From the NCBI GenBank assembly GCA_945870825.1, contig CAMBTM010000001.1:26926-90925 (forward strand): a DNA stretch of 64,000 nucleotides, given 5' to 3'. Every line of letters begins with the position of its first letter. Position 1 is the stretch's first letter. Positions 580 through 27,033 of the stretch are shown piece by piece. The translations under genes and the position numbers were made by a program. This DNA is from Rhizobium sp. Q54 (GTDB lineage Bacteria > Pseudomonadota > Alphaproteobacteria > UBA7879 > VGCX01). The notes below the pieces were generated by a model. That model was not told the DNA's origin and did no database searches. It worked only from the letters and a program-made list of their open reading frames with translations.

Positions 580-3500
580 ATGCGCATCGACAGACGATTT
601 ACGAAGGACTCTTTAACAACTTATGCAGGCATCGCCTTCAAAAAAACGTCAAGCGAAATCAAAAATCCTGATGGGACGATTGTTTTTAGCCTCAAAGATT
701 TTGAAGTCCCTGAATCATGGTCCCAAGTTGCTGCCGACATTATTGCCCAAAAGTATTTCAGAAAAGCAGGCGTTCCTGTTTGTCTTAAAACGCTAGAAGA
801 AGCGGGGGTTCCTGAATGGCTATGCCCTTCTGTCCCCGATCAAGAGGCTCTTGAAAAGCTCCCCCTTGAGGCGCGCTATTCTTCTGAGACATCGGCCAAG
901 CAAGTATTCAACAGGCTCGCCGGCACCTGGACCTACTGGGGCTGGAAGCATGGGTATTTTGATACCGAAGCCGATGCCAAGACTTATTATGACGAAATGT
1001 CCTATATGCTTGCAACCCAAATGTGTGCACCAAATTCTCCGCAATGGTTCAACACAGGTCTTCACTGGGCCTATGGCATTACAGGACCTGCCCAGGGACA
1101 TTCTTATGTGGACCCTGAAACTGAACAATTACTGCAATCCACCAGTGCCTATGAACGCCCCCAACCCCACGCCTGCTTTATCCAAAGCATTCATGATGAC
1201 TTAGTCAGTGAGGGTGGGATCATGGACCTTTGGGTCCGAGAAGCCCGTCTTTTTAAATATGGTTCTGGAACCGGATCCAACTTTTCAAACCTGCGGGGCA
1301 AGGGCGAGTCCTTGTCAGGTGGCGGAAAATCTTCTGGCCTCATGAGTTTCTTGCGTATTGGTGACAGGGCTGCTGGGGCCATTAAGTCGGGTGGCACCAC
1401 AAGGCGTGCCGCCAAGATGGTCTCCGTTGATGTGGATCACCCCGATATTGAAGAATATATCAATTGGAAAGTTGTTGAAGAACAAAAAGTCGCAGCCCTT
1501 GTTGCTGGATCTAAAATCACCAAGAAGTACGTCGACACCATCATGACGGCATGCTATGCCGTGGATAGTGACAAAGCCGAAGTTGATCCCCATAAAAATC
1601 CTGCCCTCAAAGCAGCCATCAAGGATGCCAGAAAAAGCATGGTCCCTGATAGCTATATCCAACGGACCCTGCAACTTGCATCCCTTGGAGAAAAGTCTAT
1701 TGATTATAAAACCTATGATACCGACTGGGATTCCGAAGCTTATGGAACTGTATCGGGACAAAACTCCAATAACTCTGTGCGCGTCTCTAATGATTTTTTG
1801 GACCGTGTGGAAAAAGGTACTTCTTGGGATTTGATCAACCGAACAGATGGAAAAGTATCAAAGACTATTCCTGCAAAAGAACTTTGGCATAAGATTTCTT
1901 ACGCAGCTTGGGCATGCGCTGACCCTGGCATCCAGTATGATACCACCATTAACGAATGGCATACGTGCCCCCAACATGGGCGGATCAAAGCATCCAACCC
2001 TTGTTCTGAATATATGTTTTTGGATGATACAGCCTGTAACTTGGCATCTTTAAATTTGATGAAATTTTATCAGCCTGCTATCAATGGAAAACCCCAATTT
2101 GATCTAGAAGGATTCGAACACGGAACACGTCTTTGGACCATGGCCCTTGAAATTGCGGTTCTCATGTCCCAGCTCCCTTCCAAAGAAATTGCCCTCGGAA
2201 CTTATAAATATCGGACACTGGGCCTTGGCTTTGCAAATATTGGCGGCCTTTTGATGGCTTTTGGTATCCCTTACGATAGTCCTGAAGGTCGGGCTATCGC
2301 AGGGGGTATTGGGGCGTTGATGACAGGGGTTTCTTATACAACCTCTGCTGAAATGGCAAAGGAACTAGGTGCCTTTAAAGGGTACGCAGGCAATGAGAGG
2401 GATATGTTGCGGGTCATGCGTAACCATCGGCGTGCCGCCTATGGTAAAGCAGAGGGATATGAAAAATTAGAAATTGCTCCTGTCGCCCTTGATATTGATC
2501 ATTGTGCCATTCCATACTTGGCAGTTCATGCCCAAAAAGCCTGGGATGCTGCCCTAGATCTTGGGGAACAATATGGCTACCGCAACGCCCAAACAACCGT
2601 TATTGCCCCAACAGGGACCATCGGCCTTGTGATGGACTGTGACACGACAGGCATTGAGCCAGACTTTGCTTTGGTGAAATTCAAGAAATTAGCGGGTGGC
2701 GGATACTTTAAAATTATCAACCAAATGGTCCCCATGGCCTTAATTAACCTTGGATATACCCAAGACCAAGTGGATGAAATCATTCAATATGCCGTCGGTC
2801 ATGGATCCTTGAAAAATTGTCCTTCTATTAATTACGACCTTTTAAAGCAAAAGAAGTTTGGGGACAGGGAAATTGACATTCTTGAAAACAACCTCAAGAC
2901 AGCCTTTGATATTAAATTTGTCTTCAACAAATGGACCTTTGGGGAAGATTTTTGCACAAAGACCCTGGGGTTCACCAAGGAACAATTGGATAAACCGACC
3001 TTTAACATCCTAGAGGCTTTGGGCTTTTCCAAGCAAGACATTGACGCGGCTAATGCCTATTGCTGTGGCACCATGACCTTAGAACAAGCCCCTTACTTAA
3101 AGGCGGAACACCTGCCTGTCTTTGACTGTGCCAATCCTTGTGGTCGCATCGGCAAGCGTTTCTTATCGGCTGAAAGCCATATTCGGATGATGGCTGCTGT
3201 TCAACCGTTTATTTCAGGTGCCATTTCAAAGACCATCAACATGCCCAATCATGCAACCATTGAAGACTGCCATGAGGCTTATATGTTGTCCTGGAAGTTA
3301 GGTCTTAAGGCCAATGCCTTGTACCGCGATGGATCAAAATTATCTCAGCCGTTGAATTCCGCCCTTCTCGAAGAAGAAGATGAGGAAGATAACAATATAG
3401 AAGAAACGTTGATGTCCAAAACACAAACAGAGCGCACAACCCATGTTGTCGAACGCGTGGTAGAGCGGATCATCAATCAAGCGGCAAGACGCAAACTCCC

Positions 3501-4221
3501 CGGACGACGCAAGGGATACACCCAAAAAGCCACCATCGGGGGCCATAAGGTTTATCTTCGAACCGGTGAATATGAGGACGGCCGTCTTGGGGAAATCTTT
3601 ATTGATATGCACAAAGAAGGGGCGGCTTTCAGAAGCCTCATGAACAACTTTGCCATGGCCATTTCCATCGGTCTTCAATACGGCGTACCACTAGAAGAAT
3701 TTGTCGAGGCCTTCACTTTCATGCGCTTTGAACCCGCAGGTGTTGTAAAGGGGAATGATGCCATCAAGATGGCGACATCCATTTCTGACTACGTATTTCG
3801 AGAACTGGCTATTTCATACCTCGGCCGAACGGATTTAGCCCACGTCCAAGCGTCCGATCTTTTGCCTGATAGCGTTGGAGGTGATTCACAAGGTGAATCT
3901 TCATTAGCAACGGAATCCATCACACCGATGGCCAGCAATGGGTATATCCGCCGGAAACTTTATGTTTTGCATAGTGATACGCAGCAACACGATGACAATC
4001 CTTTTGTGACGAGCGCTGTGTTGAAACAAACCGAATCAACGGTGCGAAAAACAGATGCAGCCCAAGAACAAAGTGCGGACGAAAAAGCTGAAAAAATCAA
4101 AGCTGCCCGCCTGCAAGGCTATGCCGGAGATGCATGTGGTGATTGTGGAAACTTTACACTCGTTCGTAATGGGACATGCCTCAAGTGTAATACCTGCGGC
4201 AGTACGACGGGTTGTTCTTGA
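580..4221 (+). CDS. nrdJ: Vitamin B12-dependent (class II) ribonucleotide reductase
   Basis: 1213 aa, long alphaproteobacterial NrdJ architecture with a C-terminal CxxC...CxxC zinc ribbon (CGDCGN...CLKCNTCG). Overall similarity to class II RNR judged by eye. Confidence 0.9.
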
Positions 4222-4294
4222 GGGGAGCAGAGAAAGATTTCATACACTGCGTGTAAAAAATATTGAGAAATTTATAGATATTTTGTTCATGCAG

Positions 4295-4391
4295 AACCCT
4301 CTGCATAATATGGCAAATGAACAAACTAACTTTCTGAAAGTGTGGAAAAATCTTCTTGTGGATTATGGAAAGAGTCATTATGCAGAGGGTT
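4295..4391. repeat. 15-bp perfect inverted repeat (AACCCTCTGCATAAT / ATTATGCAGAGGGTT) flanking about 67 nt, with nested small hairpins ATGCAGA-ACCC-TCTGCAT and AATGGT-TTTT-ACCATT
   Basis: Read directly from the sequence in the nrdJ 3' intergenic region. Confidence 0.6.
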
Positions 4392-4434
4392 TGAATGGTT
4401 TTTACCATTAAACGGAAACTGCCTTTATCCCAAT

Positions 4435-4467
4435 CGCCACGGCATTCAAAACCGTGGCGATTTTTTT
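4435..4467 (+). terminator. Rho-independent terminator downstream of nrdJ
   Basis: GC stem CGCCACGG / CCGTGGCG with loop CATTCAAAA, followed by ATTTTTTT. Confidence 0.65.
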
Positions 4468-4549
4468 ACCCCCATTTTTTCATATCTTCAACACATCCTT
4501 CATGGCATAATTCTTAAAGGACATTACGGTGACTTGTAGATAAGCATTC

Positions 4550-7501
4550 ATGAACGGCAAAGGACGATTTTTAAAGATTTTGACAGCCCTTTTTATTTTC
4601 TTAGGGTTTTTTTTCTTGGCCGGCGTTTGGCGGTTATCCGAAAGCCCCTTAAGACTTCCGGTCCATTTTGCAAAGATCCGCACATTTGTCCAACAATACG
4701 GCGTGGACTTTGAAGAAATCTATCTTTTTTCCCCGTCCCTTTTCAGTCTTCCTGGGATCCTTATACAAAAAGGCTACTTTGAGAATGAGGGCCTTGATTT
4801 TCGAGCAGAAAATATTTTTATGAGTTGGAAATTAGGGTCCCTTTTTTCCCATAAAAAATCCTGGAAAATAAGCCAAGTAACCTTGGAGGCACCCCATATT
4901 CTCTTTAAGAATAATCAATCAAGTGCTGGCGTGCCCAGTAATATGGATATTCCTGCCATCACCATTAAGAATGGAACTTTTGGCAATCTCCCCAATGGCA
5001 CAATCTTGCCACCCCACAGTGTCAACGGTACTTTTTACCAAGAAAAAGGCCGCACCCTTTTGCATTTCTATATCGAAAGCAACAAAACAACCATCAATGG
5101 CACTCTCAGCATACAAGGTGATCATATCAAAATGACTGGGGCCATTCGTCATTTTTTGCCCAAAGATTGGATTTCTTTCATACCCGAAGAAAGTCATGGG
5201 TGGTGTAACTTTTTTGAAAATCATATTCCTCTCATAGACTTTAGTTTTAATGGTCGTCTTCGTGATAGGTGGCCAGAAGGATTTTTAACCATTAATATAC
5301 AAGCCCCCTTTAAAGAAAATAATCAGATAAAGACTGTTCCTGTGCGGTGCCACCTAGGCCTCACCCATACAGAAACCATGTTGAAAATCTCTCTTGCGAC
5401 CAAGACCGAGGCCTTCCCTTGGGCCGGCCTTAAAGACCTCTGGCCCACCTTTCTATCCCCCAATGTCCGCAGCTGGTGCATAGACCGTATTCAAGGGGGA
5501 GAAGCCCATCCTGTGGATCTTGTGGCTAACCTTTCGTGGAACAAGGAAACTCATGATGTTCGCTTGGAAGATTTGAACGGAACCCTTGGGGTCAGTCACG
5601 GCAACGTGCGTTATATGGACAGCATGCCGCTGGTTGAAGATGCCATTGCAAATGCCACCTTCACAGCTGATGAATTCATTATTCAAATCCCCCAAGGATC
5701 CACAGAAAATCTCAATGTCACAAAAGGGACCGTACGCTTTATTGATCTTCAAACAGATGATCCCCAAGGTGTTATTGATCTCACGATTGAAGGCCCTTTG
5801 ACCCAAGCCCTTTGGGTGGCAGACCATCCCCCCTTCCGCTTTGCAAGTCAATATCATTTTGACCCACGATCTGTATCTGGCCATTCTAAAACCAAGTTAG
5901 TCATGAAATTTCCAACCACAACGGTACCAACGTTGGATACCATGAAGCCAACGGTTGTGGCCCATATACAAGACTTCGCCATGAAGAAAAAGATTGCGGG
6001 CCAACAAGTACAGTTAAAAAAGGGCAGCTTTACCCTCAACATCACTAAAGATCTTTTGTCTCTCAAGGGAACAGCTTTTATCAATGGCACACGAGGATTT
6101 ATTCACTGGGAAGAGTCATTTGCGAAAAACCCAAAGTTTCTGAGACGGTATCAGGTGAAACTGCCCATGACTGTTACAAAACTTCTGTCCTTCACGCCCC
6201 CTGCTGTTCAAGACTTTGTTAAAACAGCGCCCGAGTTTTCTTTCAAAGACCAAGTCCTTCTAAATTTGGATTATATGGATGTGAATCCCCAGGATTCTCT
6301 GCTCATTTTAAATCTGGATCTGAAAAACAGCGCTGTCACACTGCCCCTCTTCCAGTATGAAAAGAAGATGGAAGAACCAGGGACCTTGTTTTTACGTCTT
6401 CTCTTTAAGAAAGAAATCATTCATGCCATCGATAGGTTTCACTTAACGGCAAAGGACTTAAATATAAAAGGCACTTGTACGTTCAATAAAGCAGGAAATC
6501 TGACACATATGCAGTTTCAGGATATTCATGTGAATAAATCTCAGTTGACAGGCTACCTCAAGAAAGAAAAAGATCTTTGGAAATTAGCCCTCAAAGGCCC
6601 TGACATTGTTCTTCCCCCCATTATTGCTTTTTATAAAAATTTGCCTGATACCCCAGAAAACAAAAGCCAAACAAATCTTGATATTGCCTTTGATTTTCCA
6701 AGTGTTTTTTTGGATAATGATATCGTCTTTTATGACATTAAAGGCACTATGGCATGGAGAGAGGGCGCACTCCATCACTACGACTTTAGGGGTGGAAGTG
6801 TCGAAAAACCAACTCTTACCCTTCAATATGGTCCTCAAGGGAATGAAATGAAACTCTCCCTTAAAACATCCGTCATGAACGACATTCTTAAAGGCTTTGA
6901 TTGGACAGAGACCATTACCGCAGGAGATGTGACGATTAATGCAACGAAACCGTTGAATGCCACCAAAAAACCCCTGATTGGCAAAATGGATGTCCGTAAC
7001 TTCCGTATTAAAAATGCGCCTATTTTGGCAAAACTTCTTTCTCTCATTTCCATTGAAGGACTTCTCAGTACTTTAACAGGGGAAGGGATCCTTTTTGTAA
7101 CAGGAGAAGCAGACTTTGAATATTTGGACAAAAAAATAGCGATCCCCCATCTTGAACTGACCAGTAGTTCTCTTGGTATTACTGCTAAAGGATATGTGGA
7201 CTTAAAAGAGAATAGGATTGATACAACGGGTTATATTATCCCCGCCAATCTGTTGAATCAAATCATCGGTAACATTCCTCTGATTGGCAATATCTTGTCT
7301 GGAGGGTCAAAAGAACACAAAGGACTTGTCTCCATGTCTTACAGCATGAAGGGTCCCCTTGGAGACCCAGAGGTCTCATCCGACCCCCTTTCCGTCCTTG
7401 CCCCCAATTTTGTGAAAGGCCTTTTCTCAAGCCTCACTGGCAGTGGGAAAGAGGTGCCATCGCTGAGTAAGACGCCGGCGTATAAGAGCCAAGTTTTTTA
7501 A
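4550..7501 (+). CDS. AsmA/YhdP-like (DUF3971 family) inner-membrane-anchored large periplasmic protein
   Basis: 983 aa with a single N-terminal TM anchor (LKILTALFIFLGFFFLAGVW) and a long beta-rich body. The C-terminal region (GNILSGGSKEHKGLVSMSYSMKGPLGDPEVS) resembles the AsmA_2/YhdP C-terminus. Family assignment is by eye. Confidence 0.5.
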   Translation: MNGKGRFLKILTALFIFLGFFFLAGVWRLSESPLRLPVHFAKIRTFVQQYGVDFEEIYLFSPSLFSLPGILIQKGYFENEGLDFRAENIFMSWKLGSLFSHKKSWKISQVTLEAPHILFKNNQSSAGVPSNMDIPAITIKNGTFGNLPNGTILPPHSVNGTFYQEKGRTLLHFYIESNKTTINGTLSIQGDHIKMTGAIRHFLPKDWISFIPEESHGWCNFFENHIPLIDFSFNGRLRDRWPEGFLTINIQAPFKENNQIKTVPVRCHLGLTHTETMLKISLATKTEAFPWAGLKDLWPTFLSPNVRSWCIDRIQGGEAHPVDLVANLSWNKETHDVRLEDLNGTLGVSHGNVRYMDSMPLVEDAIANATFTADEFIIQIPQGSTENLNVTKGTVRFIDLQTDDPQGVIDLTIEGPLTQALWVADHPPFRFASQYHFDPRSVSGHSKTKLVMKFPTTTVPTLDTMKPTVVAHIQDFAMKKKIAGQQVQLKKGSFTLNITKDLLSLKGTAFINGTRGFIHWEESFAKNPKFLRRYQVKLPMTVTKLLSFTPPAVQDFVKTAPEFSFKDQVLLNLDYMDVNPQDSLLILNLDLKNSAVTLPLFQYEKKMEEPGTLFLRLLFKKEIIHAIDRFHLTAKDLNIKGTCTFNKAGNLTHMQFQDIHVNKSQLTGYLKKEKDLWKLALKGPDIVLPPIIAFYKNLPDTPENKSQTNLDIAFDFPSVFLDNDIVFYDIKGTMAWREGALHHYDFRGGSVEKPTLTLQYGPQGNEMKLSLKTSVMNDILKGFDWTETITAGDVTINATKPLNATKKPLIGKMDVRNFRIKNAPILAKLLSLISIEGLLSTLTGEGILFVTGEADFEYLDKKIAIPHLELTSSSLGITAKGYVDLKENRIDTTGYIIPANLLNQIIGNIPLIGNILSGGSKEHKGLVSMSYSMKGPLGDPEVSSDPLSVLAPNFVKGLFSSLTGSGKEVPSLSKTPAYKSQVF

Positions 7502-7545: not shown

Positions 7546-8563
7546 CTAATCCAAAAAGGGCTTCAAAAGTGCCATTCCCTTTTGGATTTGGGGCTCAAGG
7601 TAAAGACCATAAGCGCCCTTGGGACGCCTTGCTTTTTGGCGTTCAAGTTTTTTAAATCCTTGACGTACCAGATAACACCCAAAGTGTAACCGGTTCAATA
7701 AACGGTATTTCTCAAGTTTTGCCAAATTTTCCGGTGTAACGGCCCCAAAATAAGCCTCCACCATTTGGTGTTCTTGCTCAGCTGTAAAGTCCATCTGTTC
7801 GGCTAATGAACCTAAATCCTCAAAAACATCCCCATGACTCACTTCTGACCAGTCGATCAAGGCAACGCTACCTCCCACAATAATGTTGGACGCTTGAATA
7901 TCACCGTGCACCACGTGGGTAAAAGAAGGCTTTAAAGAGTCTAAGAATTTTTCAGCCTTCACTAATCTTTCTTTCATATCAGGGGCGACTTTCAACAGTT
8001 CCCTCAATCGCCTCAGGGAACGATACCGCAATGATTTATTATCAAAATGAAGAGGCAATGTTGGAAGCAAGGCATGAGAGGCCTTTAGTTTTTCCATAAA
8101 CACCTTGAGCGTCTCTGGATTCTTAAAATAATCTTGATCCGGATGATGCCCTTCCAAAAACTCTGTGATCATCACTTGGTAACGAGGATCATGCCAAAAA
8201 AGCTTGGGATAACCCCAAACAGCCCCTAAGGCCTTTGTTGTTTCAATGGTCCGTCGACGTTCTGCAATAGGTGTTTTTTCATAGAAAATCTTGATAAAAA
8301 GTGAATGTTCCTGGCCTTTCACATCCAAAATACGCTGTTTGCGTTTCCCGTGGGATGATTCACCCAAAAAATTTGAATGCCCCTCTAATGATTGATGCCC
8401 TGGAAAAAGATGCTCGGTCCCTTGTATAATGTGGGTCCGAACAGCGTTAATAAACCCTGGCCTTAAGGTGCGAGGAACCGGATAACTCCAGCAAGGCAAT
8501 AACAGGATGAGAACAAAAACAAGCTTAAAGGGTGCGCGCCACCGACTTAACTTCAGAACACTC
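7546..8563 (-). CDS. Phosphotransferase-family kinase (APH/choline-ethanolamine kinase-like fold)
   Basis: Brenner motif [11 protein letters not shown] and DWSEVSHGD are present. The start is uncertain: candidates are ATG at 8613 or 8589, GTG at 8580, or TTG at 8563, and every one overlaps the 3' end of infB. Confidence 0.6.
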
Positions 8564-11077
8564 AATGATATCTCCTTCACGTAAATCATGATAATTTTCA
8601 AAGGCCATGCCACATTCTAGATTATTCTTCACTTCTTTTACTTCATCTTTGAGCCGCTTTAGGGATTTCAACGGACCTTCATGAATCACAACATCGTCTC
8701 TCAAGATACGCACCTTAGCACCGCGTTTAACAACACCTTCTGAGACATAACATCCAGCAATGGTGCCTACTTTCGAAATCTTGAAAATTTGACGTACTGT
8801 CGCACGCCCCAAGAATTCTTCTTGAGAAACAGGCGACAACATGCCCCCCATCATCGCTTTGATATCGTCAATAATCTCATAAATGATCGAATAATACCGA
8901 ATATCGAGATGCTTTTGTCGAGCAAGCTCCCGTGCTTGGGTATTGGCCCGTACGTTAAACCCAATGATCAGAGCACTGGACGCAGATGCCAGGGAAATAT
9001 CAGTTTCATTAATACCACCCACGCTGCAATGCAAAACACGCACACTGACCTCTGCTGTGGCTAATTTCTGCAAACTTGCACTGATGGCCTCAGCGGATCC
9101 TTGAACGTCGGCCTTAATGACCACTGCCAATTCCTTAGAATTGTTTTGTGTTGAAAAGAAGTTCGCAGCGGTAGCCGTTTCTTGAACAGCTGCTTTTTCC
9201 CGCTTTTTCAAACGACGATGGTCAGCAACTTCTCGGGCCTGAGCCTCATCTTTTACAACAAAAAAGGTATCGCCTGCCAAAGGAACGCCGTCAAACCCAA
9301 GGACTTCGACGGGGAATCCTGGACCAGCGCCTTCAACACGATGGCCCTTGTCGTCCACCAAGGCTCTGACTTTTCCAACTTCTATCCCTGCCACAAAAAT
9401 ATCGCCCGTCCGCAAAGTTCCTTTTTGAATCAAGATGGTCGCAACAGGTCCACGGCCTTTTTCAATTTTAGCTTCAACCACAGATCCCACCGCATCGCGG
9501 TCCGGATTAGCCTTCAAATCCAAAACATCCGCTTGAAGCAAAATAGCATCCGTTAGCTTATCGAGATTCATTTTTTTGGTTGCAGAGACTTCAACTGATA
9601 AAACATCTCCCCCCATTTGTTCCACAACAAGTTCGTGTCTTAAAAGCTCCGTCCTGACACGATCCGCGTCTGCAGCGGGCTTATCCATTTTGTTAATCGC
9701 AACAATGATTGGAACCCCTGCGGCTTTGGCATGGTTAATCGCCTCAATAGTCTGTTCTTTCAGTCCATCATCGGCAGCAACCACCAAGACAACGATATCC
9801 GTCACATGGGCCCCGCGGGCCCGCATTTCTGTAAAGGCAGCGTGACCAGGGGTGTCAATAAAGGTAATCTTATCCCCAGAATCGAGTGTCACTTGGTACG
9901 CCCCAATATGTTGGGTAATCCCTCCAGCTTCGCCCGCAACCACATCCGTTGTCCGCAACGCATCCAGCAAAGACGTCTTTCCGTGGTCCACGTGGCCCAT
10001 AATAGTCACAACAGGTGGACGGGCTTTTAAATCTTCAGGCTTATCAATCGATCCAATTAACGCTTCTTCAAGGTCCGTATCTGACACACGTTTCACTTTG
10101 TGTCCCAAATCTTCTGCAACCAATTGGGCTGTGTCGGCATCAAGAACGTGGGTGATTGTTGCCATGACCCCAAGTTTCATCAAAGACTTGATCACTTTAG
10201 CCCCTTGTTCTGCCATACGGTTGGCAAGATCTTGGACTGAAATCACGTCAGGGATAATGACTTCTCTGGATACTTTCTCTAAAGGATTAAATTGTTCTTG
10301 AAGTTTCTTTCGTTCTTTCTCGCGGGCCCGTTTGATGGACGAAAGACTGCGAGTCCGTTCATTTTCTTCTTCTTCCAAGGCCTCTTCAACGGTCATCTTT
10401 CCAATGACACGCTTGTTCTCGCGGCGATTGACGGTAACTTTTTTGACTTCATAAAGCTGATGCTTTTTCGTCTTTTCACTTTCTTCTGTTGCGTCATCAT
10501 CAAGATCTTTTTTTGTCTTGATTACTTTCGCTTCCAATGGTTTCTTAGCATTTTCGGGCAACACCATCGGGTCTTGGATTGCAGGATCTTGCACCGGTTG
10601 GTCTTCAACTGCTGGAGGCTCTGGTGTTTGCTTCGCGTACTTTTCTTCCATCAATTTCTTGATTTCAGCATCCCGGCGCGTCATCTCATCCCGCCTAGCT
10701 TCCTGCTTTTGAACAAACTGATTGGCCCGCTGAAGCGCTTGAAGACGGGCATCTCGTTCCTCAGATGTCAAAAATCCATCATTTCTTTTGTCTGTCGATG
10801 GTCTTTGGTGGGGCTGTGAAGGCTGAATAGTGGACGATGTTTCTTTTGACGGGTCAGGTTGTACACCTTGGACAGGTGACTGCGTAGACTTTGTTCGTTT
10901 CTTGACTTCAACGACAACTGTTTTGGATCGTCCCACCCCTGTTGTGCTGCGTTGTCCCCGATCAGCCCCTACAATATCCTTCAACACTAACTTGGATGAT
11001 AGTGTTAAAGGGGCCTTACCTGAATCCTTTTTAACAGAATCAGGCGCAATGGAACCGTTGTCGTTTTTATCACTCAT
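8525..11077 (-). CDS. infB: Translation initiation factor IF-2
   Basis: 850 aa with a charged, low-complexity N-terminus. G-domain [20 protein letters not shown] and NKMD motifs are present. Confidence 0.95.
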
Positions 11078-11093
11078 AGTGAATCACAATCCT

Positions 11094-12611
11094 TTATTTT
11101 TCTTCGAACCAGTGTTCACGGGCCTTCATAATCAAGGCATTCGCATCGTCAAGACTGATCTTATTTTCACCCAAAATTTCGCGCAGTTCATCACCCGCAA
11201 GATCGGCAAAATCATCCAGGGTTTTAATATCCCCTTTCGCTAAGACAAGCCGTTGATCAGACGTAAGCCCTTTGAATGAAAGAAGATCCTTCTCCATTCC
11301 AAGATCTGTACATTCCTTTTCAATACGTTTTTTCTTTTCTTTAACAGCAACAACCGCACGGGCATGAAGCTCTTGCGCTACAGATTCATCAAACCCTTCA
11401 ATGGAAGAAAGATCTTCCAAATCACAGTCCGCCACTTCCTCAACAGAGGTGAACCCTTCTGCTGCCAAAAGGTGGCCAATGACCTCATCCACATCCAAAG
11501 ACTCAATAAAGTCCTGAGCACGCCTTTTGAACGTGGCTGCACGATTTTTCTCATCATCTTCTTCTGTCACAATGCTGATATCCATGCGGGTCAAGCCTGA
11601 GGCAAGACGCACATTTTGACCGCGGCGTCCAATGGCCAAGCTCAATTGATCAGCCGGCACAACCACCTCGACCTTGCCTTCGTCTTCATCAATGATGACT
11701 TTGCTAATTTCAGCAGGCGCCAAAGAATTCACAACAAACGTCGCAAGGTCCTCAGACCAAAGGACGATATCAACCTTTTCACCTTGGAGTTCATTCACAA
11801 CGGCTTGAACGCGGCTACCGCGCATTCCCACACAGGACCCAACAGGGTCAATAGAAGAATCCCGTGCCACAACTGCAATCTTTGCGCGGCTCCCCGGATC
11901 ACGCGCCACAGAAACAATTTCGACTAACCCATCTGAAATTTCAGGCACTTCTTGACGAAATAATTCTGCCATAAAGTTAGGGTGTGTTCTGGACAAAAAG
12001 ACCTGAGGTCCCCGTGGTTCTGGGCGCACATCCATGATGTAGACCAAAATCTTGTCTCCTGGGCGGAAGTTTTCGCGCGCGATACATTCATCACGGCGCA
12101 ACAAGGCCTCGCACTTTCCGATATCAACGATGTAATTACCATATTCATTGCGGCGGATAATGCCCGTTGCAATGTCACCCAAACGGGACTTGAATTCATT
12201 ATATTGACGATCACGCTCTGCCCCACGCACCCGCTGAGAAATCACCTGGCGAGCAGACTGAGCGGCAATACGACCAAACTGAACGGGGGGGAGCTCAGTA
12301 ATTACAAACCCGCCAACCTCAGCCTCTGGGTCAGATTTTTTAGCATCCGCCAGAAGAATCTGCAAAGAAGGTTCCGTAACCTCATCCACAATTTCTTGAT
12401 ACATGCCCAGATTCACAACCCCGGATATCCGGTCGATATACGCCCGAATGTCATTTTCAAGACCATATTTTGTGCGGGCTATTTTTTGAATAGCCTCTTC
12501 CATCGCCTTGACGACTTCCTCGCAGTCAATGCCTTTCTCACGCGCAACCGCATCAGCAATCTGCAAAATCTCACGACCTAGTGTAGCGCTCATCTTCGAT
12601 CCTCGAACCAT
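11094..12611 (-). CDS. nusA: Transcription termination/antitermination factor NusA
   Basis: 505 aa with NusA N-terminal, S1, KH and C-terminal acidic repeat regions. It sits immediately upstream of infB in the conserved order. The start may be the internal Met at about 12593. Confidence 0.93.
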   Translation of the reverse strand: MVRGSKMSATLGREILQIADAVAREKGIDCEEVVKAMEEAIQKIARTKYGLENDIRAYIDRISGVVNLGMYQEIVDEVTEPSLQILLADAKKSDPEAEVGGFVITELPPVQFGRIAAQSARQVISQRVRGAERDRQYNEFKSRLGDIATGIIRRNEYGNYIVDIGKCEALLRRDECIARENFRPGDKILVYIMDVRPEPRGPQVFLSRTHPNFMAELFRQEVPEISDGLVEIVSVARDPGSRAKIAVVARDSSIDPVGSCVGMRGSRVQAVVNELQGEKVDIVLWSEDLATFVVNSLAPAEISKVIIDEDEGKVEVVVPADQLSLAIGRRGQNVRLASGLTRMDISIVTEEDDEKNRAATFKRRAQDFIESLDVDEVIGHLLAAEGFTSVEEVADCDLEDLSSIEGFDESVAQELHARAVVAVKEKKKRIEKECTDLGMEKDLLSFKGLTSDQRLVLAKGDIKTLDDFADLAGDELREILGENKISLDDANALIMKAREHWFEEK

Positions 12612-12774
12612 TAAACTATCTTAAAAACAAAAGGCGGACCAACGTAACGTCTCGTCCACCCCTCTTACGTACAATTTTTCCAGATTATAAGGCTTTTCCA
12701 AAAACCTTCAAGCAGAATTTCATCAACCACTAAGAGAAAGATTTTTGATTTTAACCAGGGAGGCGGAAATCTCT

Positions 12775-12817
12775 CACTCAACACTAAATTACATTTAGTG
12801 TAACTTAGTGTTGAGTG
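12775..12817. repeat. Nested inverted repeats (CACTCAACACTAA...TTAGTGTTGAGTG with inner CACTAAA-TTACA-TTTAGTG) in the nusA / orphan-protein divergent region
   Basis: Read directly from the sequence. Confidence 0.55.
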
Positions 12818-12913
12818 GTACAAGTATCACGCTCTGCGTCATCCATATGGGTAAGCCAAAAAATCACATTCACTGCAGTTGAAAATATAAATAAAAATCC
12901 CTACATTGCATTT

Positions 12914-15736
12914 ATGCGCTATTTACTGACATTTATTATATTTATATTTTCCATCCATAGCCACGCTATGGAGGATTTAGCTGCATTGGTGCAGGCACGG
13001 TTTCAAGGCCGTGTGCCCAATCACCTTTTACCCTCTCGCTTTGCAGGATATGAACGTATCGCAACAAACATAAGGCTTTTAGGGGGTCGAAGCGTCCTTG
13101 AACCTTCGAGTAAAGGGATGATACCCTATCCTATGCCGCAGCCAGCGATTATGTTATCAGATCCTGTCTTTGGAACACCCCTTGTCCCCAGAAATGCAGC
13201 CGATGCTTTGCTTTTCTTCCTATTCCCTTATCCCAATATTTTTCAAGCGACCACCCTTGGGTCTGATCCAATCTCTAGGTTAGAACCAAAAACCTTGGGC
13301 CAACTGGCAAGACTTTGTGAGGAATATGAAGGGAGTCTTGCTGCCACCTACTCAGATACCCAAGTAATGGCTTTGGAAGAAGACTTCACAAAAGCGTTAT
13401 TAAAGGCCTTAAACTTTGATGCCAAAAAGTATGAACGTCTAGAGCCTAAACTAGATGCCTTTAATCGATGGATAACGGTCCAAGCTTTTGCAAGGAAATT
13501 AGATACAATGGCTGAAACAGTATCAGATGATGAGAGAGCAGTTGCAGCCCTCGAACACCCTGATTTAACATTGCCTCAGTGCGGTTTGCGGAACATGTTC
13601 AGAGGTTCACAAGAATTTTGGGGCATTTCTGGTATTGAACTTGAAACCTTAAGGCATCCATCCAATGAACACTCAGAGGTTCTCCAGTCTTTTGCAGAAA
13701 ACGTTTTGAATGAAGCATCCGTTAGTTTTTCCACCTTTGAAAATAGGGTGAAGGATTTTGGGAAAATGAGGCTCATTAATCTTATGGTCCGTGGCGTGGT
13801 GGATCAGCATTATGAGGCAGATATGAATGGTCTTAATCTTCAATCGCGCTTGGCCCTCTTCTTTTGGAAGAAGTACCAATGGGCTTTGCAAGAAGGAAAT
13901 ACAACCCCCATGATGGCGTTTTATGCGCACAGACTTGGCATTGATCCAATAGAAGGGCCTATGAACATCGTCCTATTACCCTTGCCCTTCTTGACCTTCG
14001 ACGATATAAAAAGGGATCCAAGACAATTTTTCTTACTTTCTTTGCCTGAGCAGGAAAAAATTATCAAAGAGTGTGCCGGCGCTTTCATCCCTATCAACAT
14101 GCACGAAGGGAAAGTTGAGGACAAAAAATTTTCTGATTGTATGGAAACAGCCATTTTTAACCTTGCAACAGCAATGATCCATAGGGTTGAAGCGGGGAAA
14201 GTTATCCTAGACCCAAGCTTTTTGCCTGACTGCCCTTTGAAAACCTATTTAGTAAAAAACCCTGGGGATTTCCATGAGTATGCGACCAAGCATTCTGAAT
14301 GGGCCAACGCTGTTGCAGGTATTCCAAGCGTTAAGTATCTTAAAACAACCACTGATGGGAAAGGATGTGAAGTCCGTCCTGGTCTTATTTCAACCCTTAA
14401 TGCTTTGTCTTTTCTTTTTGGCATGAAAGACCCTCTTCCCTATAAAAAAGATGCCTCCATTATGGAACGGTTGGCGCAAATTTCCACATTTATCCAATCA
14501 ACAGGTTATGCTGTGACACTTGTACTGGATGAAAAAAATAAACTTGAATGGTCTCCTTTAAAAAATGACTTTTCAGGACTATTCTCTTTAAAAAAGGATA
14601 CAGATACCGGGGTATTTGATACCTCCTTTGGACATGGTTATCTTAAATGGGTAACTGGCAATAGCAGTCGTGTCATCTCTCTCTTTGATCACGCCAAAAC
14701 TCTTGATGCCCTATTAACCACAGCCCCGCTTGTTAACAATCGAGATGCCTTTGATGCCTACATGAAAAAGTTCAGGATTCTTAGCGGCAGAGTTCATCAT
14801 TTAGAAGCCCATCTTTTTCAAATGGACTTAACGAGCCTTGAAATGCAAAAGGCTGTTTTCTTAGAAACCTACAATCAAAAATCTCTTGAAAGCCTAGCTC
14901 TTTCCATTATTCAACGGTTGGATGGAACTAACACTTGGCCCGCGGCTTGCGACTTTAACTTTCTGGACGGCGGCAATGGCACGCCATCAGATGAATTCCT
15001 TCATGCATTTGCTACAATACATCCAATGACTTTTTCTATCTGGAATATATTCCGGTCATATAGAACACCTGATGCTTCCATGTCTTTTTGGCATTGGTGT
15101 CGAGATACCCACAAAGAATGGATGATAGAAGCAGCGCTCCCCCTTCTCAAAGATTTTGGCACACAATGTGTGCCAAATAACGCTCAGGATCCTAGCCTTC
15201 TGTTACCCTATTTAACAAGGATGCCATCTCTTGAAACAGCACAGTTTTATGGGTGGGATGGGCCTTATTGTCTTAGGATGGAAGATACAAATCCTTTCCA
15301 TACGCCTGTCTTTGATTTTTTAACAACTAAAAATTTCATAAAAGATATTAGGGGTATTAGCCTGTCTCCAAAAACTGCTTTTCATATGATGGCACAATCT
15401 GCGAAACTCAGTCGACTCAGATTCGTCCCCCTCAATGAGACTGGATGGACAGAAGAAATTTTGAGAAAATTTATTGATCGATTTTTGACACGTAATACCT
15501 ACGGAGAGAGTAAATATCTAGAAGTGTCTTTTTTCTGGGAAGAATCAAAAATTCTAGATTTCATGAGATCTTTAAACCCGCAATACTTAAAAGATAACCT
15601 CTTTTATGCTAATAGCATGCCAGCTCCTTTAGGTGAATACGATCCAGAGACAACTGTGTATGCAAGAATCCTCAAAGAAATTCAAGACAGAGAATCCACT
15701 GCTGCTACCTCGGCCGAAGGAAAAACAGAAGACTAA
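12914..15736 (+). CDS. Large (~940 aa) secreted protein of unknown function
   Basis: Long ORF with a signal-peptide-like start MRYLLTFIIFIFSIHSHA at internal Met 12914. The upstream 33 codons of the ORF overlap the palindromic intergenic region and are probably non-coding. No motif I can assign. Confidence 0.55.
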   Translation: MRYLLTFIIFIFSIHSHAMEDLAALVQARFQGRVPNHLLPSRFAGYERIATNIRLLGGRSVLEPSSKGMIPYPMPQPAIMLSDPVFGTPLVPRNAADALLFFLFPYPNIFQATTLGSDPISRLEPKTLGQLARLCEEYEGSLAATYSDTQVMALEEDFTKALLKALNFDAKKYERLEPKLDAFNRWITVQAFARKLDTMAETVSDDERAVAALEHPDLTLPQCGLRNMFRGSQEFWGISGIELETLRHPSNEHSEVLQSFAENVLNEASVSFSTFENRVKDFGKMRLINLMVRGVVDQHYEADMNGLNLQSRLALFFWKKYQWALQEGNTTPMMAFYAHRLGIDPIEGPMNIVLLPLPFLTFDDIKRDPRQFFLLSLPEQEKIIKECAGAFIPINMHEGKVEDKKFSDCMETAIFNLATAMIHRVEAGKVILDPSFLPDCPLKTYLVKNPGDFHEYATKHSEWANAVAGIPSVKYLKTTTDGKGCEVRPGLISTLNALSFLFGMKDPLPYKKDASIMERLAQISTFIQSTGYAVTLVLDEKNKLEWSPLKNDFSGLFSLKKDTDTGVFDTSFGHGYLKWVTGNSSRVISLFDHAKTLDALLTTAPLVNNRDAFDAYMKKFRILSGRVHHLEAHLFQMDLTSLEMQKAVFLETYNQKSLESLALSIIQRLDGTNTWPAACDFNFLDGGNGTPSDEFLHAFATIHPMTFSIWNIFRSYRTPDASMSFWHWCRDTHKEWMIEAALPLLKDFGTQCVPNNAQDPSLLLPYLTRMPSLETAQFYGWDGPYCLRMEDTNPFHTPVFDFLTTKNFIKDIRGISLSPKTAFHMMAQSAKLSRLRFVPLNETGWTEEILRKFIDRFLTRNTYGESKYLEVSFFWEESKILDFMRSLNPQYLKDNLFYANSMPAPLGEYDPETTVYARILKEIQDRESTAATSAEGKTED

Positions 15737-15808: not shown

Positions 15809-15845
15809 CCTTGTAAATCAACCATGCGATAGCTGATTTACAAGG
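15809..15845. repeat. 12-bp perfect inverted repeat CCTTGTAAATCA-N13-TGATTTACAAGG downstream of the orphan gene
   Basis: Seen directly. No T-run follows, so it is not a canonical terminator. Confidence 0.5.
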
Positions 15846-15866
15846 AAACCCCCTATGAACCTGTCC

Positions 15867-15970
15867 AAATTTGCAATCAAAATGCAAATTTGTCCGGCTT
15901 TTTCTGTTTTTTCTTGCAATATGGCATCGCTAATGCCATATTGAGACTCAAAGTGGCATTTCAGGTGCCA
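15867..15970 (+). promoter_or_regulatory. Palindrome-rich promoter region of the DUF4143 ATPase gene: AAATTTGCA-N7-TGCAAATTT plus two TGGCA-N7-TGCCA sites (centres 15930 and 15962, 32 bp apart)
   Basis: Three separate perfect palindromes lie within 105 bp, ending about 30 bp before the ATG at 15999. The first TGGCA site extends to the 11-bp arms CAATATGGCAT / ATGCCATATTG. Confidence 0.5.
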
Positions 15971-15998
15971 TTTTGCGTGTAGCAAAAAAGGGAAGACT

Positions 15999-17177
15999 AT
16001 GCACTTTATTCCAAGGTTTTTTAAGGATCCAGGCCAAAGTTTCTTTCTTTTTGGCCCCCGTGGCACAGGAAAATCAACCCTCATCAAGGCTCTCTATAAA
16101 GACGCCATTTGGATTGATTTATTAAAACCTGATGTGCTCCGTAGTTACCTTGCGTACCCAGAACGTTTGGGAAATCTTATTGAAGGTCAACCAAGTATAA
16201 AAACCATCGTCATCGATGAAATCCAAAAAGCCCCGCAATTATTAACGATGATCCATCATCTTATTGAAAAGAAAATAGGACTCAAGTTCATCCTCACAGG
16301 ATCCAGTGCCAGAAAGATTAAACGGATGGATGCTGATCTTTTGGGAGGGCGCGCTATTAAACGAGAGCTTTATCCTTTTATGGCAGCAGAACTTGGCGAT
16401 CAGTTTGACCTGAAGAGAGCTCTAAACAGGGGCCTCCTCCCCTTGTTAACAGCCTCACCTAATCCTGAAGATACGCTTACAACTTATAGTGCCCTTTACA
16501 TCCACGAAGAAGTTCAAACGGAAGGATTTATAAGAAATCTAGGGGATTTTTCAAGATTTTTAGAGGCTATTTCTTTCTCTCATGGCGCCATATTAAACAC
16601 GGCGAACATTGCAAGAGAGTGTGAAATCAAAAGAAAAACCGTTGAAAATTATTTAAACGTTCTTGAAGATCTTTTATTATGTTTTAAGGTGCCAGTATTC
16701 TCGAAACGGGCCACACGTATGCTGAGTGTTCATCCAAAGTTTTATCTTTTTGATGCAGGTCTTTATCAAGGGCTAAGGCCCCGGGGTATACTCGATAAGC
16801 CTGAGGAAATCGAAGGTGCTGCACTCGAAGGACTTGTTGCGCAGCATTTAAGAGCCTGGGTACAGTATACAAGTCAAAAACATAGTCTCAATTTCTGGCG
16901 AACACGATCAGGATCAGAAGTTGACTTCGTTGTATATGGAACCCTGGGATTTTGGGGAATAGAAGTTAAAAATACGACAAAAATCCGTCCCGAAGACTTA
17001 AAATCGTTGGAATCTTTTTTGGAAGAATATCCAGAGGCTACAGGATTCCTTCTCTATCGTGGGTCAGAACTTTTTAAAAGAAATAATATCTTATGTGTTC
17101 CTGTCGATATGTTCTTAAGAAATCTTGTTCCTGACATAGGACTCTGGGAACATATCCCTACCCCTCTTAAACCATAA
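15999..17177 (+). CDS. AAA+ ATPase, AAA_14 + DUF4143 family (COG1373-like)
   Basis: Walker A GPRGTGKST and Walker B IVIDEIQ are present. The C-terminal region is typical of the DUF4143 family. A diverged paralog lies at 25864. Confidence 0.8.
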   Translation: MHFIPRFFKDPGQSFFLFGPRGTGKSTLIKALYKDAIWIDLLKPDVLRSYLAYPERLGNLIEGQPSIKTIVIDEIQKAPQLLTMIHHLIEKKIGLKFILTGSSARKIKRMDADLLGGRAIKRELYPFMAAELGDQFDLKRALNRGLLPLLTASPNPEDTLTTYSALYIHEEVQTEGFIRNLGDFSRFLEAISFSHGAILNTANIARECEIKRKTVENYLNVLEDLLLCFKVPVFSKRATRMLSVHPKFYLFDAGLYQGLRPRGILDKPEEIEGAALEGLVAQHLRAWVQYTSQKHSLNFWRTRSGSEVDFVVYGTLGFWGIEVKNTTKIRPEDLKSLESFLEEYPEATGFLLYRGSELFKRNNILCVPVDMFLRNLVPDIGLWEHIPTPLKP

Positions 17178-23572: not shown

Positions 23573-24337
23573 ATGAAAAATGAAAGAATACACCGATCAT
23601 ATGCTTTGTTTGTTGTGCTCATTTGCTTCCTCGGCATCTTTTTTTGGACAATGCAGGATTCCAACGCTGCACAAACGTCCATAGAACGGCCCCGCAGAGA
23701 GATCCCCCTCAACAAAGCGCTCTCAAAATTGCTGCCTGCCCCAAAAACTGTTGTGGAACAAGAAAATATTGGCAATAAATATCGCATTGCAATGACCGAT
23801 GTGGAATTCGTTAAAAAAAGAGATATTATCACAAAACTATTTACAACATACCCCAATCTTGTGGCGGTCCTGGATGTTGGGGGAAAATTTGTATCAAAGA
23901 AAGGTGTGTTGACCTTAACAAAGAAAGAGTTCAACCCTGCCATACATCACCTAATCATTACCAACCATAAAAACAACGTCAAAAGAATTGGGGCTTTTTT
24001 CTTGGCAGAATGTCGTAGCCTGCTTTCCCTAACCCTTTATCCCCTCATCAACCTGACCAGCATCAATGGATATTTTCTTGCTGAATGTACAAAACTGAAG
24101 ACGTTGAATCTTGGATGCCTCCACAGCGTTGAGTCCATTGGACACAGTTTCCTTGCCAACTGTCGTGCACTGATGCATCTGGATCTAAAACCCCTCCAAA
24201 ATGTGAGGAAAATCGGTCAATTATTTCTCTCTGGTTGTGGGCACCTTAAAGATGTTGATTTCACGCAATTGCACAAAGTAAAACGTGTGACACACCCTAA
24301 ACCCAACACCTCTGGGTTTGAGGTCATTAAAGATTAG
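23573..24337 (+). CDS. Leucine-rich-repeat (BspA-type LRR) membrane-anchored protein
   Basis: N-terminal TM/signal anchor followed by at least four ~23-aa repeats: IGAFFLAECRSLLSLTL, INGYFLAECTKLKTLNL, IGHSFLANCRALMHLDL, IGQLFLSGCGHLKDVDF. It is preceded by an AT-rich ATAAAATA repeat promoter. Confidence 0.6.
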   Translation: MKNERIHRSYALFVVLICFLGIFFWTMQDSNAAQTSIERPRREIPLNKALSKLLPAPKTVVEQENIGNKYRIAMTDVEFVKKRDIITKLFTTYPNLVAVLDVGGKFVSKKGVLTLTKKEFNPAIHHLIITNHKNNVKRIGAFFLAECRSLLSLTLYPLINLTSINGYFLAECTKLKTLNLGCLHSVESIGHSFLANCRALMHLDLKPLQNVRKIGQLFLSGCGHLKDVDFTQLHKVKRVTHPKPNTSGFEVIKD

Positions 24338-25863: not shown

Positions 25864-27033
25864 TTGTGGAATATAAAAATGCATTTTAAGCGATATTTGA
25901 CCTTTCATTTGCCTGACCAACAATCTGCTTTTCTTTGGGGAGCAAGGAAAACTGGGAAATCAACCTTCCTAAAAGAGAAATTCCCAACAGCAGTTTACAT
26001 AGACCTTTTAAGGGCTGATGTTTATCAAGGATATCTTCGAAAACCAGAAAAACTGAGGGAAGAATTTCGTGGATTCACAGACCCCCTAACCATCATTATT
26101 GACGAAGTCCAAAAAGTTCCCATCCTTCTGGACGAAATTCATGGTCTCATCGAAGACAGAAAAAATCTTCAGTTTATTCTATGCGGATCAAGTGCTAGAA
26201 GATTAAGACAACCAGGCGTGAATTTATTGGGTGGCAGAGCCTGGAGGTTCATGTTTTTGCCACTTTGCTATCCCGAAATTCAAGAACTCAATTGGTCTCA
26301 TATTTTTAACAGAGGTCTTATCCCAAGCCACTACGTGTCACCATCTTGGGAAAAAAATCTTGCAGCTTATCTTTATGACTACGTCTTAACAGAAGTTCAT
26401 TTAGAGGCAGATATCCGGAAAAAAGAGTCTTTTGCCAGATTTCTAGATGTTCTTGGATTTTGTCATGGAACGCTTATCAATTACACCAATATCGCCCGAG
26501 ACTGTGGGGTCAACAGCAAAACAGTCATGACCTATTTTGAGATTCTGGAAGATATGTATTTAGGTTATTTTCTAAGGCCATTTCGATCAAGAAGCAGTCG
26601 TCAAATTGTTCAAAAAACACCCAAATTCTACCTCTTTGACACAGGCGTTGCCAATTATCTTAAGCGATATGAATTCAAAGAAATGAGAGGGGCTGACGCT
26701 GGCGCAAGTTTTGAACATTACGTATTTTTGGAATTGATGGCATACAAACTGCTGACAGATAAGCGGGATAACATTTTTTTCTGGAGAACAAAAGAAAAGC
26801 ATGAGGTAGACTTCATTGTTCAAGATATGGCTTTTGAAGTCAAAATTTCAACACCTATCGAAAAAAATGACATAAAAAACCTTCTCATTTTTGCCCAAGA
26901 TCATGCAATGTCTCTTCACATCATCTCTCTGGAACATCGAAAAAGAGTCATGCGAGAAGGAACCAAAGAAGTAACCGTATGGCCAATTCAAGACTTCCTA
27001 GAGGCCCTTTGGGGGGGAGATCTATGGAAATAA
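25864..27033 (+). CDS. AAA+ ATPase, AAA_14 + DUF4143 family (paralog of 15999..17177)
   Basis: Walker A GARKTGKST and Walker B IIIDEVQ. About 35-40% identical to the first copy by eye. The start is possibly the Met at 25879. Confidence 0.8.
   Translation: MWNIKMHFKRYLTFHLPDQQSAFLWGARKTGKSTFLKEKFPTAVYIDLLRADVYQGYLRKPEKLREEFRGFTDPLTIIIDEVQKVPILLDEIHGLIEDRKNLQFILCGSSARRLRQPGVNLLGGRAWRFMFLPLCYPEIQELNWSHIFNRGLIPSHYVSPSWEKNLAAYLYDYVLTEVHLEADIRKKESFARFLDVLGFCHGTLINYTNIARDCGVNSKTVMTYFEILEDMYLGYFLRPFRSRSSRQIVQKTPKFYLFDTGVANYLKRYEFKEMRGADAGASFEHYVFLELMAYKLLTDKRDNIFFWRTKEKHEVDFIVQDMAFEVKISTPIEKNDIKNLLIFAQDHAMSLHIISLEHRKRVMREGTKEVTVWPIQDFLEALWGGDLWK

Follow-up and report, generated by a model that had tools for sequence, protein, structure and literature searches.

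In a 64,000-nt stretch of alphaproteobacterial DNA from contig CAMBTM010000001.1 (the window, to whose full length all coordinates refer), an open reading frame (ORF) lying divergently to nusA-infB encodes a 940-amino-acid (aa) protein. We propose that this protein is an exported Cys/His enzyme of a new family, guided to its substrate by leucine-rich repeats (LRRs), and assign a probability of about 0.5 to the statement as a whole. Its parts differ in strength. That the protein is real, exported, LRR-bearing and of a new family we consider highly probable. Catalysis by its Cys409/His574 pair is favoured somewhat beyond even odds, and a target in another organism is put forward tentatively, with the odds slightly against it.

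In the proposed mechanism, Sec-dependent export would be followed by cleavage of an 18-residue signal peptide to yield a soluble mature protein with four main parts: an N-terminal segment, a helical domain, an alpha/beta domain and a solenoid of LRRs of the ribonuclease inhibitor (RNI)/F-box type. The central alpha/beta domain would most likely act as a papain-like cysteine enzyme, that is, a protease, isopeptidase, deamidase or acyl/transglutaminase-type transferase. Cys409 at a helix N-terminus would serve as nucleophile, His574 on a neighbouring beta-strand as general base and the nearly invariant E486 or E411 as third residue, and binding of the protein substrate would fall to the LRR domain. 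Beyond the periplasm, the enzyme might then reach that substrate, a protein of another organism, be it protist host or prey.

A rare family of exported proteins

The longest frame (12815..15736, + strand) opens with GTG, and translation from ATG 12914 gives the 940-aa protein beginning MRYLLTFIIFIFSIHSHA. Sequence comparison supports this ATG as the true start, because orthologs open with the same Met-Arg-Tyr/His-Leu-Leu (MRYLL/MRHLL) and because a conserved promoter-like element stops 6 nt 5' of it. Both the TTGAA-N17/18-AATCCCTACAT geometry and the AATCCCTACAT block are kept in the window and at an ortholog locus (L003), even though AbiE genes have inserted upstream of the latter. As no Shine-Dalgarno sequence precedes ATG 12914, the leader of the ORF may be very short or absent.

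Signal peptides were judged by sequence inspection, hydropathy and a crude n/h-region test, not by SignalP. On this heuristic basis, the N-terminus (MR-YLLTFIIFIFSI-HSHA before the predicted cut, ME after it) has the features of a Sec/signal peptidase I (SPase I) substrate: a basic n-region, a 12-residue hydrophobic core (7-15 residues being expected of an h-region) and an S-H-A site of the cleavage type, in which small residues occupy -3 and -1. It lacks a lipobox Cys. The hydropathy profile of the 940-aa protein contained no other hydrophobic segment. The same layout is kept in two orthologs (P0002 and P0004), A-x-A-type sites recur across the family and signal-peptide-like N-termini were scored for 25/32 members, the remainder being mostly fragments. 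The classical signal peptide of the original prediction was thereby upheld. A suggested check for a secretion-substrate signal at the other end of the protein gave a different result: the tail at aa 906-940 is acidic, modelled with low confidence and not conserved, and contains no recognisable secretion signal.

Searches of Pfam, NCBIfam and PADLOC returned no match for the protein, and nothing significant was found among PDB sequences with the single sequence (phmmer), a full-family profile or a domain-only profile. A word-indexed homology search identified an identical protein and two relatives with 51% and 44% identity; its repetition with a 32-sequence alignment retrieved the same three proteins and added none. 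A longer member of the second relative's cluster, P0004, is 46% identical to the ORF protein over its full length. Far more relatives were obtained by an exhaustive HMMER scan of a three-sequence profile against 1.84 billion cluster representatives (E<=1e-3), which yielded 33 clusters/proteins, mostly of 760-1120 aa with some shorter fragments. The core common to the family spans residues ~280-620, and hidden Markov model (HMM) matches of distant members centre on the Cys/His domain. Across 32 members, Pfam, NCBIfam and PHROGs gave only isolated, chance-level matches, and none of the members tested matched PADLOC. All source-named members are 'hypothetical protein' entries from metagenome-assembled genomes (MAGs) of uncultured Alphaproteobacteria or Proteobacteria (for example, MBT5540963.1, MBS0185222.1, MDP3533027.1 and GHU11349.1). 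We conclude that the ORF is a real gene of a rare, so far unannotated family in uncultured alphaproteobacteria. It had been described as an orphan, which the 33 clusters correct. The accompanying expectations were borne out: a large exported protein of no annotated family, alphaproteobacterial by its NusA and RecA relatives, with no match to a placeable family in Pfam, NCBIfam, PHROGs, PADLOC or PDB sequences and no remote match to a housekeeping family.

Predicted Cys/His and LRR domains

Structure prediction with AlphaFold was unusable with three sequences (predicted local distance difference test score, pLDDT, 48). With the 32-sequence alignment, the model reached a pLDDT of 84.5 and a predicted template modelling score (pTM) of 0.81 and resolved the domains listed in Table 1. 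We assessed column conservation in this alignment (16% mean column identity) and in a domain-only alignment of 29 sequences (24% mean identity). Cys409 is the sole invariant column of the former, and Cys409 and His574 are the only invariant residues of the latter. E411, Y475, E486 and H574 are >=90% conserved in the 32-sequence alignment, with E411 and E486 each present in 30/32 sequences, and position 408 is Asp in 25/32. The domain is marked by the motifs [FY]-x-[DN]-C-[VM]-E-[TI]-x-x-x-N (F-x-D-C-V-E-T-x-x-x-N in the ORF protein), W463, Y475-x-K, [YC]-E486-[IVL]-[KR]-[PS]-G and G-H574; an E486-x-x-x-G pattern was also noted.

In the confident model, Cys409 and His574 appear to hold papain-like positions. 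Cys409, present in 32/32 sequences, is the first residue of helix 409-422, as expected of a clan CA-type cysteine hydrolase. His574 follows 165 residues later as the first residue of strand 574-581, which belongs to an antiparallel sheet (552-581), and helices 441-529 lie between the two. Candidates for a third residue are E486, E411 and D408. The original prediction had recognised neither a catalytic nor a repeat motif; the Cys409/His574 signature emerges from the family alignment together with the structure model, and the repeats from the model.

These repeats form the C-terminal domain. In the model, its fold is an LRR of the eukaryote-style RNI type, a curved beta/alpha solenoid with ~28-29-residue repeats that superpose on RNI-type LRRs. 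LRR profile models (for example, Pfam LRR_6) matched none of the 32 members at E<=0.01, and PDB-profile matches to CARMIL and SKP2 were insignificant (E 0.6-2.7). Foldseek found nothing below E 0.02 in the PDB, and none of the structural matches listed covers the Cys/His or helical domains. In a viral structure library, the one significant match not involving LRR proteins was to an uncharacterized protein of Yasminevirus, a giant virus of amoebae (A0A5K0U8Z2; E 8e-7, 556 columns, TM 0.15); weaker matches were giant-virus F-box/LRR proteins. Elsewhere in the window (23573-24337, +), a 254-aa ORF combines an N-terminal hydrophobic signal-like segment with a BspA-type LRR (Pfam LRR_5, E 1.4e-10) and would, by its sequence, be a second exported LRR protein.

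Conserved Cys and His residues need not imply catalysis. The protein could instead be an exported binding protein, such as an adhesin, scaffold or decoy, whose function resides in the LRR and helical domains and in which the pair, with E411 and E486, holds a metal or stabilises the fold. Metals are commonly bound by Cys, His and Glu as well, homology to an enzyme family was found in no case, and bacterial signal-peptide LRR proteins are often adhesins, a BspA-type LRR ORF being present in the window itself. We nevertheless consider a purely binding role quite improbable. The pairing of one invariant Cys at a helix N-terminus with one invariant His where a strand begins is the hallmark arrangement of catalytic dyads, and it is the Cys/His domain, not the LRR, that is most conserved. 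The motif is, moreover, retained in diverged paralogs: both members of a tandem pair at locus L091 have F-A-D-C-[VT]-D-T and [YC]-E-x-x-P-G.

We compared this architecture with known systems. OTU/Lot deubiquitinases, the papain-like (clan CA-type) cysteine hydrolases of intracellular bacteria chosen for comparison, are characterized by an OTU fold with Cys and His loops, a D/N-C-H triad, a ubiquitin-binding S1 site and ubiquitin-chain cleavage; the Legionella Lot enzymes feature an 'extended helical lobe' between Cys and His, with D27/C29 in LotB, D17/C24 in LotC and the Lot His at H270/H304 (PMC7690952). The ORF protein resembles them in the acidic residue just before Cys ([DN]-C in its family), in the helical insertion between Cys and His and in a His far downstream on a beta-strand. 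The similarity lies only in this order of D-C, helical insertion and H: no OTU model matches any family member, and no OTU/Lot chain is among the structural matches listed, so that the protein does not qualify as an OTU enzyme. A G-H-x-aromatic motif resembles the OTU His motif as well.

A second parallel concerns IpaH/SspH/SlrP, in which LRRs are fused to a catalytic-Cys NEL ubiquitin-ligase domain, and XopL, which combines LRRs with an XL-box. Like the ORF family, these are fast-evolving, paralog-forming accessory genes, and, if the predicted activity holds, the shared principle is an LRR recognition module joined to a domain relying on one invariant Cys. In IpaH, short LRRs of the bacterial LPX type at the N-terminus precede a NEL domain that is all-helical and carries C-x-D, and secretion proceeds by a type III system without a Sec signal. 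In contrast, the ORF protein has a C-terminal RNI-type LRR, an alpha/beta Cys domain with an invariant His and the motif D-C-V-E, and a Sec signal; the NEL Pfam model matched neither it nor its family, which places it outside the IpaH type. By analogy, it may be likened to IpaH-type proteins in working principle and to OTU/Lot enzymes in domain layout while belonging to neither group.

RNI/F-box-type LRR proteins used for comparison comprised eukaryotic RanGAP1, NLR and FBXL proteins, bacterial LegL7 of Legionella and GALA/RipG of Ralstonia, and giant-virus F-box/LRR proteins. The ORF protein differs from them in its ~five degenerate repeats, which have no Pfam LRR match, in lacking an F-box and in joining the LRR to a Cys/His domain and a signal peptide. 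LapG and other bacterial transglutaminase-like cysteine proteinases, NlpC/P60 and CHAP enzymes combine a Sec signal with a Cys...His pair and act outside the cytoplasm. These periplasmic papain-fold enzymes consist of one domain of roughly 150-250 aa and are recognised by Pfam/NCBIfam models. The ORF protein matches none of these models and differs by its 940 aa, its additional helical and LRR domains and its far longer Cys-His spacing.

Table 1 Features of the ORF and its protein in the window
Feature	Position	Strand	Remarks
Promoter-like element of the ORF	12879..12907	+	TTGAAA, 17-nt spacer, TACATT; from a consensus scan, putative function
Coding sequence, 940-aa protein	12914..15736	+	stop TAA 15734-15736; identical protein on record, P0001; full-length orthologs 46-51% identical
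Sec-type signal peptide, aa 1-18 (MRYLLTFIIFIFSIHSHA)	12914..12967	+	predicted SPase I cleavage after S-H-A; no lipobox Cys
Conserved N-terminal segment, aa 19-120	12968..13273	+	motifs L-F-P-x-P (103-105) and D-P (118-119); pLDDT mostly 83-92
All-helical domain, aa 121-392	13274..14089	+	motif F-F-W-x-K (316-320); no structural match listed
Central alpha/beta Cys/His domain, aa 393-582	14090..14659	+	most conserved part of the family
Codon TGT, Cys409	14138..14140	+	proposed nucleophile; invariant 32/32
Codon CAT, His574	14633..14635	+	proposed general base; invariant wherever the column is covered
Helical linker region, aa 583-744	14660..15145	+	from the AlphaFold model
C-terminal beta/alpha solenoid, aa 745-905	15146..15628	+	about five degenerate repeats of RNI / F-box-LRR type
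C-terminal helix and acidic low-confidence tail, aa 906-940	15629..15733	+	not conserved in P0002, absent in P0004
Perfect 12-bp inverted repeat	15809..15845	.	arms CCTTGTAAATCA 15809-15820 and TGATTTACAAGG 15834-15845; 13-nt loop; 73 nt past the stop

Accessory behaviour and possible targets

The gene evolves much faster than its neighbours. Between the window and L003, NusA and InfB are 87% and 84% identical, as compared to 46-47% for the ORF protein, and the nonsynonymous divergence (dN) of 0.48 for the ORF, 0.084 for nusA and 0.116 for infB corresponds to a ~5x higher rate than that of nusA. The ratio of nonsynonymous to synonymous divergence (dN/dS), nominally 0.18 with dS saturated, indicates that the ORF is under constraint.

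Its location is variable. Divergent orientation to nusA-infB is found at L003 too, where AbiEi and a truncated AbiEii separate the homolog from these genes. Among species-representative genomes, the closest (L004; NusA 79%) retains nusA-infB-APH but carries unrelated genes upstream and no ORF homolog, marking a variable spot in the clade. At 80 other alphaproteobacterial nusA loci, no family member was found within 10 kb, which runs counter to the gene being conserved at this position across free-living alphaproteobacteria. Family members reside in a different neighbourhood in every lineage, and no neighbour recurs in the contexts examined: they lie after infC-rpmG, between holC-side genes and ssb-gyrA (L084), after kdsD-lptC-lptA-lptB, after rplM-rpsI-ugd, before rpmI-rplT-pheST with a secretin gene 6 kb away, and on an island with HipA, Fic, a replication-type ATPase and an integrase immediately downstream. 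Paralogs occur in one MAG with two copies (locus tags JSS34_02550 and JSS34_02830) and as the tandem pair in L091 (10001-16994; 1123 and 1055 aa, 39% identical). In the L091 assembly, 'Alphaproteobacteria bacterium FACS189449', a 506-aa ORF (3336-4856) with faint tropomodulin-type LRR matches lies 5 kb from the pair. The ORF is slightly AT-rich, with a GC content at third codon positions (GC3) of 0.374 as compared to 0.441 +/- 0.042 (1.6 sd low); codon usage is window-typical, and recent transfer is not clearly indicated. The gene behaves as an accessory gene, as seen in its fast evolution, variable location, paralogs and one integrase-adjoining copy.

Given this fast evolution, mobility and duplication, together with the eukaryote-style LRR, the most likely substrate would be another organism's protein rather than a housekeeping target. 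The original prediction of a plausible novel effector or surface protein gained support from the same traits; action on a host is unproven, and we regard a host-effector role as plausible.

An alternative is that the protein works for the bacterium itself, as a periplasmic or envelope enzyme of NlpC/P60- or LapG-like kind that processes peptidoglycan, a lipoprotein or an adhesin and uses its LRR to bind an endogenous partner. Periplasmic papain-like Cys/His enzymes are well established, and a Sec signal without a further secretion signal is what such an enzyme would carry. The family members are usually single-copy genes among housekeeping genes, once directly after kdsD-lptC-lptA-lptB, and the codon usage of the ORF fits its surroundings. 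We consider this role unlikely because the NlpC/P60, CHAP, transglutaminase-like and LapG models all failed to match, the gene evolves ~5x faster than neighbouring housekeeping genes and is missing at the L004 locus and the 80 other nusA loci, the family contains paralog expansions and an integrase-flanked copy, and RNI-type LRRs are mainly a eukaryotic or effector-type module. A periplasmic enzyme would still represent an unannotated family with clear catalytic candidates, of value for annotation and of modest wider interest.

Several observations weigh against the exported, LRR-guided cysteine enzyme acting on another organism. At the level of the domain, no conserved acidic or amide residue of clan CA style follows His574, and no similarity of the Cys/His domain to a known clan CA member was detectable in the sequence searches or among the structural matches listed. 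The TM of 0.15 for the Yasminevirus protein means that a shared architecture is not established. Concerning export, a Sec signal carries the protein only to the periplasm and is usually absent from classical effectors of type III and IV systems. Apart from a single secretin gene 6 kb away from a family member, neither genes nor signals for type II, IV or V secretion were seen, and the 64-kb window contains no secretion-system genes. As for the host, the genes of the window are ordinary housekeeping and metabolic ones, including pyruvate dehydrogenase, lipA, gatAB, fabH/plsX and lipopolysaccharide genes. NusA is 79% identical to that of a lake MAG labelled 'Alphaproteobacteria bacterium' and <=62% to anything else, while RecA reaches 88-89% with MAG proteins and about 80% with Holosporaceae, Holosporales, Rickettsiales and Caulobacterales MAGs alike; RecA-based placement is too unspecific to discriminate. 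The carriers derive from lake, marine and other metagenomes, as far as contig and isolate names indicate their environments. Host association, which the original prediction had deemed probable, is possible but unproven, in view of the ordinary gene content, the lake and marine carriers and the failure to find a secretion system or C-terminal signal.

If the central domain works as a cysteine enzyme, it would represent a new, structurally unmatched branch of Cys/His hydrolases and a new case of a design ('LRR plus catalytic cysteine') by which pathogens and symbionts act on specific proteins of other organisms. Since the family is known only from uncultured alphaproteobacteria of lakes, oceans and other microbiomes, it could mark hidden protist-bacterium interactions. 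A more far-reaching version, which we hold to be doubtful, is that residues 393-582 found a new cysteine-enzyme fold or family, fused to a eukaryote-type RNI LRR, exported by Sec and a subsequent outer-membrane route and employed by uncultured, possibly Holosporales-like protist associates to modify host proteins such as ubiquitin-like conjugates; a related Yasminevirus protein would then point to gene exchange in amoebae.

The nusA locus and neighbouring genes

The ORF is preceded directly by infB (8525-11077, -) and nusA (11094-12593, -) on the opposite strand and followed by a DUF4143/AAA_14 ATPase gene at 15999-17177, which confirms the long ORF and flanking genes as originally described. 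In most alphaproteobacterial loci, a RimP-like ORF lies just upstream of nusA. A RimP HMM built from 13 such alphaproteobacterial upstream ORFs (positive control 1.9e-58) detected nothing in the window, L003 or L004. The ORF had been said to sit where rimP would normally be and perhaps to replace it. This turned out to be a matter of position only: L004 lacks both genes, and in L003 the ORF is parted from nusA by AbiE. Because rimP is also missing in L004, where the ORF is absent, its loss is a clade trait independent of the presence of the ORF, and an ORF on the opposite strand does not occupy the place of rimP in the operon. We rejected the ORF as RimP itself, since it is an exported protein of 940 aa encoded on the opposite strand, as opposed to a ~150-200-aa cytoplasmic ribosome maturation factor, and has no RimP profile match. 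A functional replacement of RimP, or membership in the nusA-infB transcription/translation unit, would accord with the ORF being next to the 5' end of nusA in the window and, beyond the insertion, in L003, and with the lack of a detectable rimP in the window. The ORF has its own promoter-like element on the other strand, however, the region upstream of nusA in L004 has neither gene and other family members occur at unrelated loci, which together with the export of the protein leaves this idea a negligible chance.

The neighbours also raised the question of an anti-phage defence or toxin module formed with the DUF4143 ATPase or the AbiE genes. The downstream DUF4143 gene matches PDC-S01, a candidate defence family in PADLOC (E 5e-55), AbiEi and truncated AbiEii adjoin the L003 homolog and another DUF4143 gene lies 6 kb from the homolog in L084. 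Such a module is very unlikely: an exported protein would be an odd partner for cytoplasmic defence ATPases, no neighbour is common to the contexts examined, DUF4143 genes are simply frequent, with two in the window, and no conserved small immunity-type partner gene was found beside family members. We rejected the defence-system reading, as the family has no PADLOC or PHROGs match. The two DUF4143 genes of the window (15999-17177 and 25864-27033) both encode AAA_14 plus DUF4143, lie within 10 kb of each other and have a GC3 of 0.34-0.35. The AbiE genes in L003 (3757-4657) comprise an AbiEi antitoxin-like gene and an AbiEii gene cut to 97 aa, a decayed AbiE abortive-infection/toxin-antitoxin cassette.

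The perfect 12-bp hairpin and palindrome-dense region reported downstream of the ORF were both recovered, the latter with perfect 10- and 11-bp palindromes 3' of the hairpin. No T-run follows the hairpin and a terminator scan there found nothing; it is a putative element whose link to the ORF is unproven. Just 5' of the DUF4143 ATPase gene, a palindrome cluster at 15866-15976 (CAAATTTGCA/TGCAAATTTG and CAATATGGCAT/ATGCCATATTG) includes two TGGCAT-N5/6-(A/G)TGCCA units at 15922 and 15954. These palindromes are probably regulatory sites of the DUF4143 gene rather than of the ORF, and no sequence like them precedes the second DUF4143 gene.

Between the divergent nusA and ORF promoters, a 19-bp inverted repeat (12775-12817, 95% complementary; CACTCAACACTAAATTACA / TGTAACTTAGTGTTGAGTG) is conserved in L003 (3779-3819), on the nusA side of the AbiE insertion, and absent in L004. 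Neither strand has a T-run, and the repeat may represent an operator-like site. The nusA promoter, TTGAAG-N16/17-TATAAT at 12711..12684 (-), is conserved. It is followed by a leader with a conserved GC-rich hairpin and then UUUUGUUUUU (about 12625-12665; fold -19.4 kcal/mol, z -2.6). This leader (promoter/leader regions: window 12612-12711 (-), L003 3605-3736, L004 4760-4872) resembles a terminator or attenuator of the leader type, by which NusA may regulate its own expression; the clade is one without rimP upstream of nusA. Upstream of nusA in L004 (3012-4731), we noted a 199-aa ORF that is alternative-oxidase-like by motif, as judged by eye, and a 325-aa signal-peptide ORF without a known family.

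At its start, the window encodes a class II-like ribonucleotide reductase of 1213 aa (580-4221, +), in which Ribonuc_red_2_N, Ribonuc_red_lgC and TSCPD domains were recognised, and after it a YhdP-family envelope protein. Further downstream (40591-41208, +) is a gene for a 205-aa Fic/DOC protein (E 2.4e-11); in other genomes, members of the ORF family likewise have Fic and HipA genes beside them.

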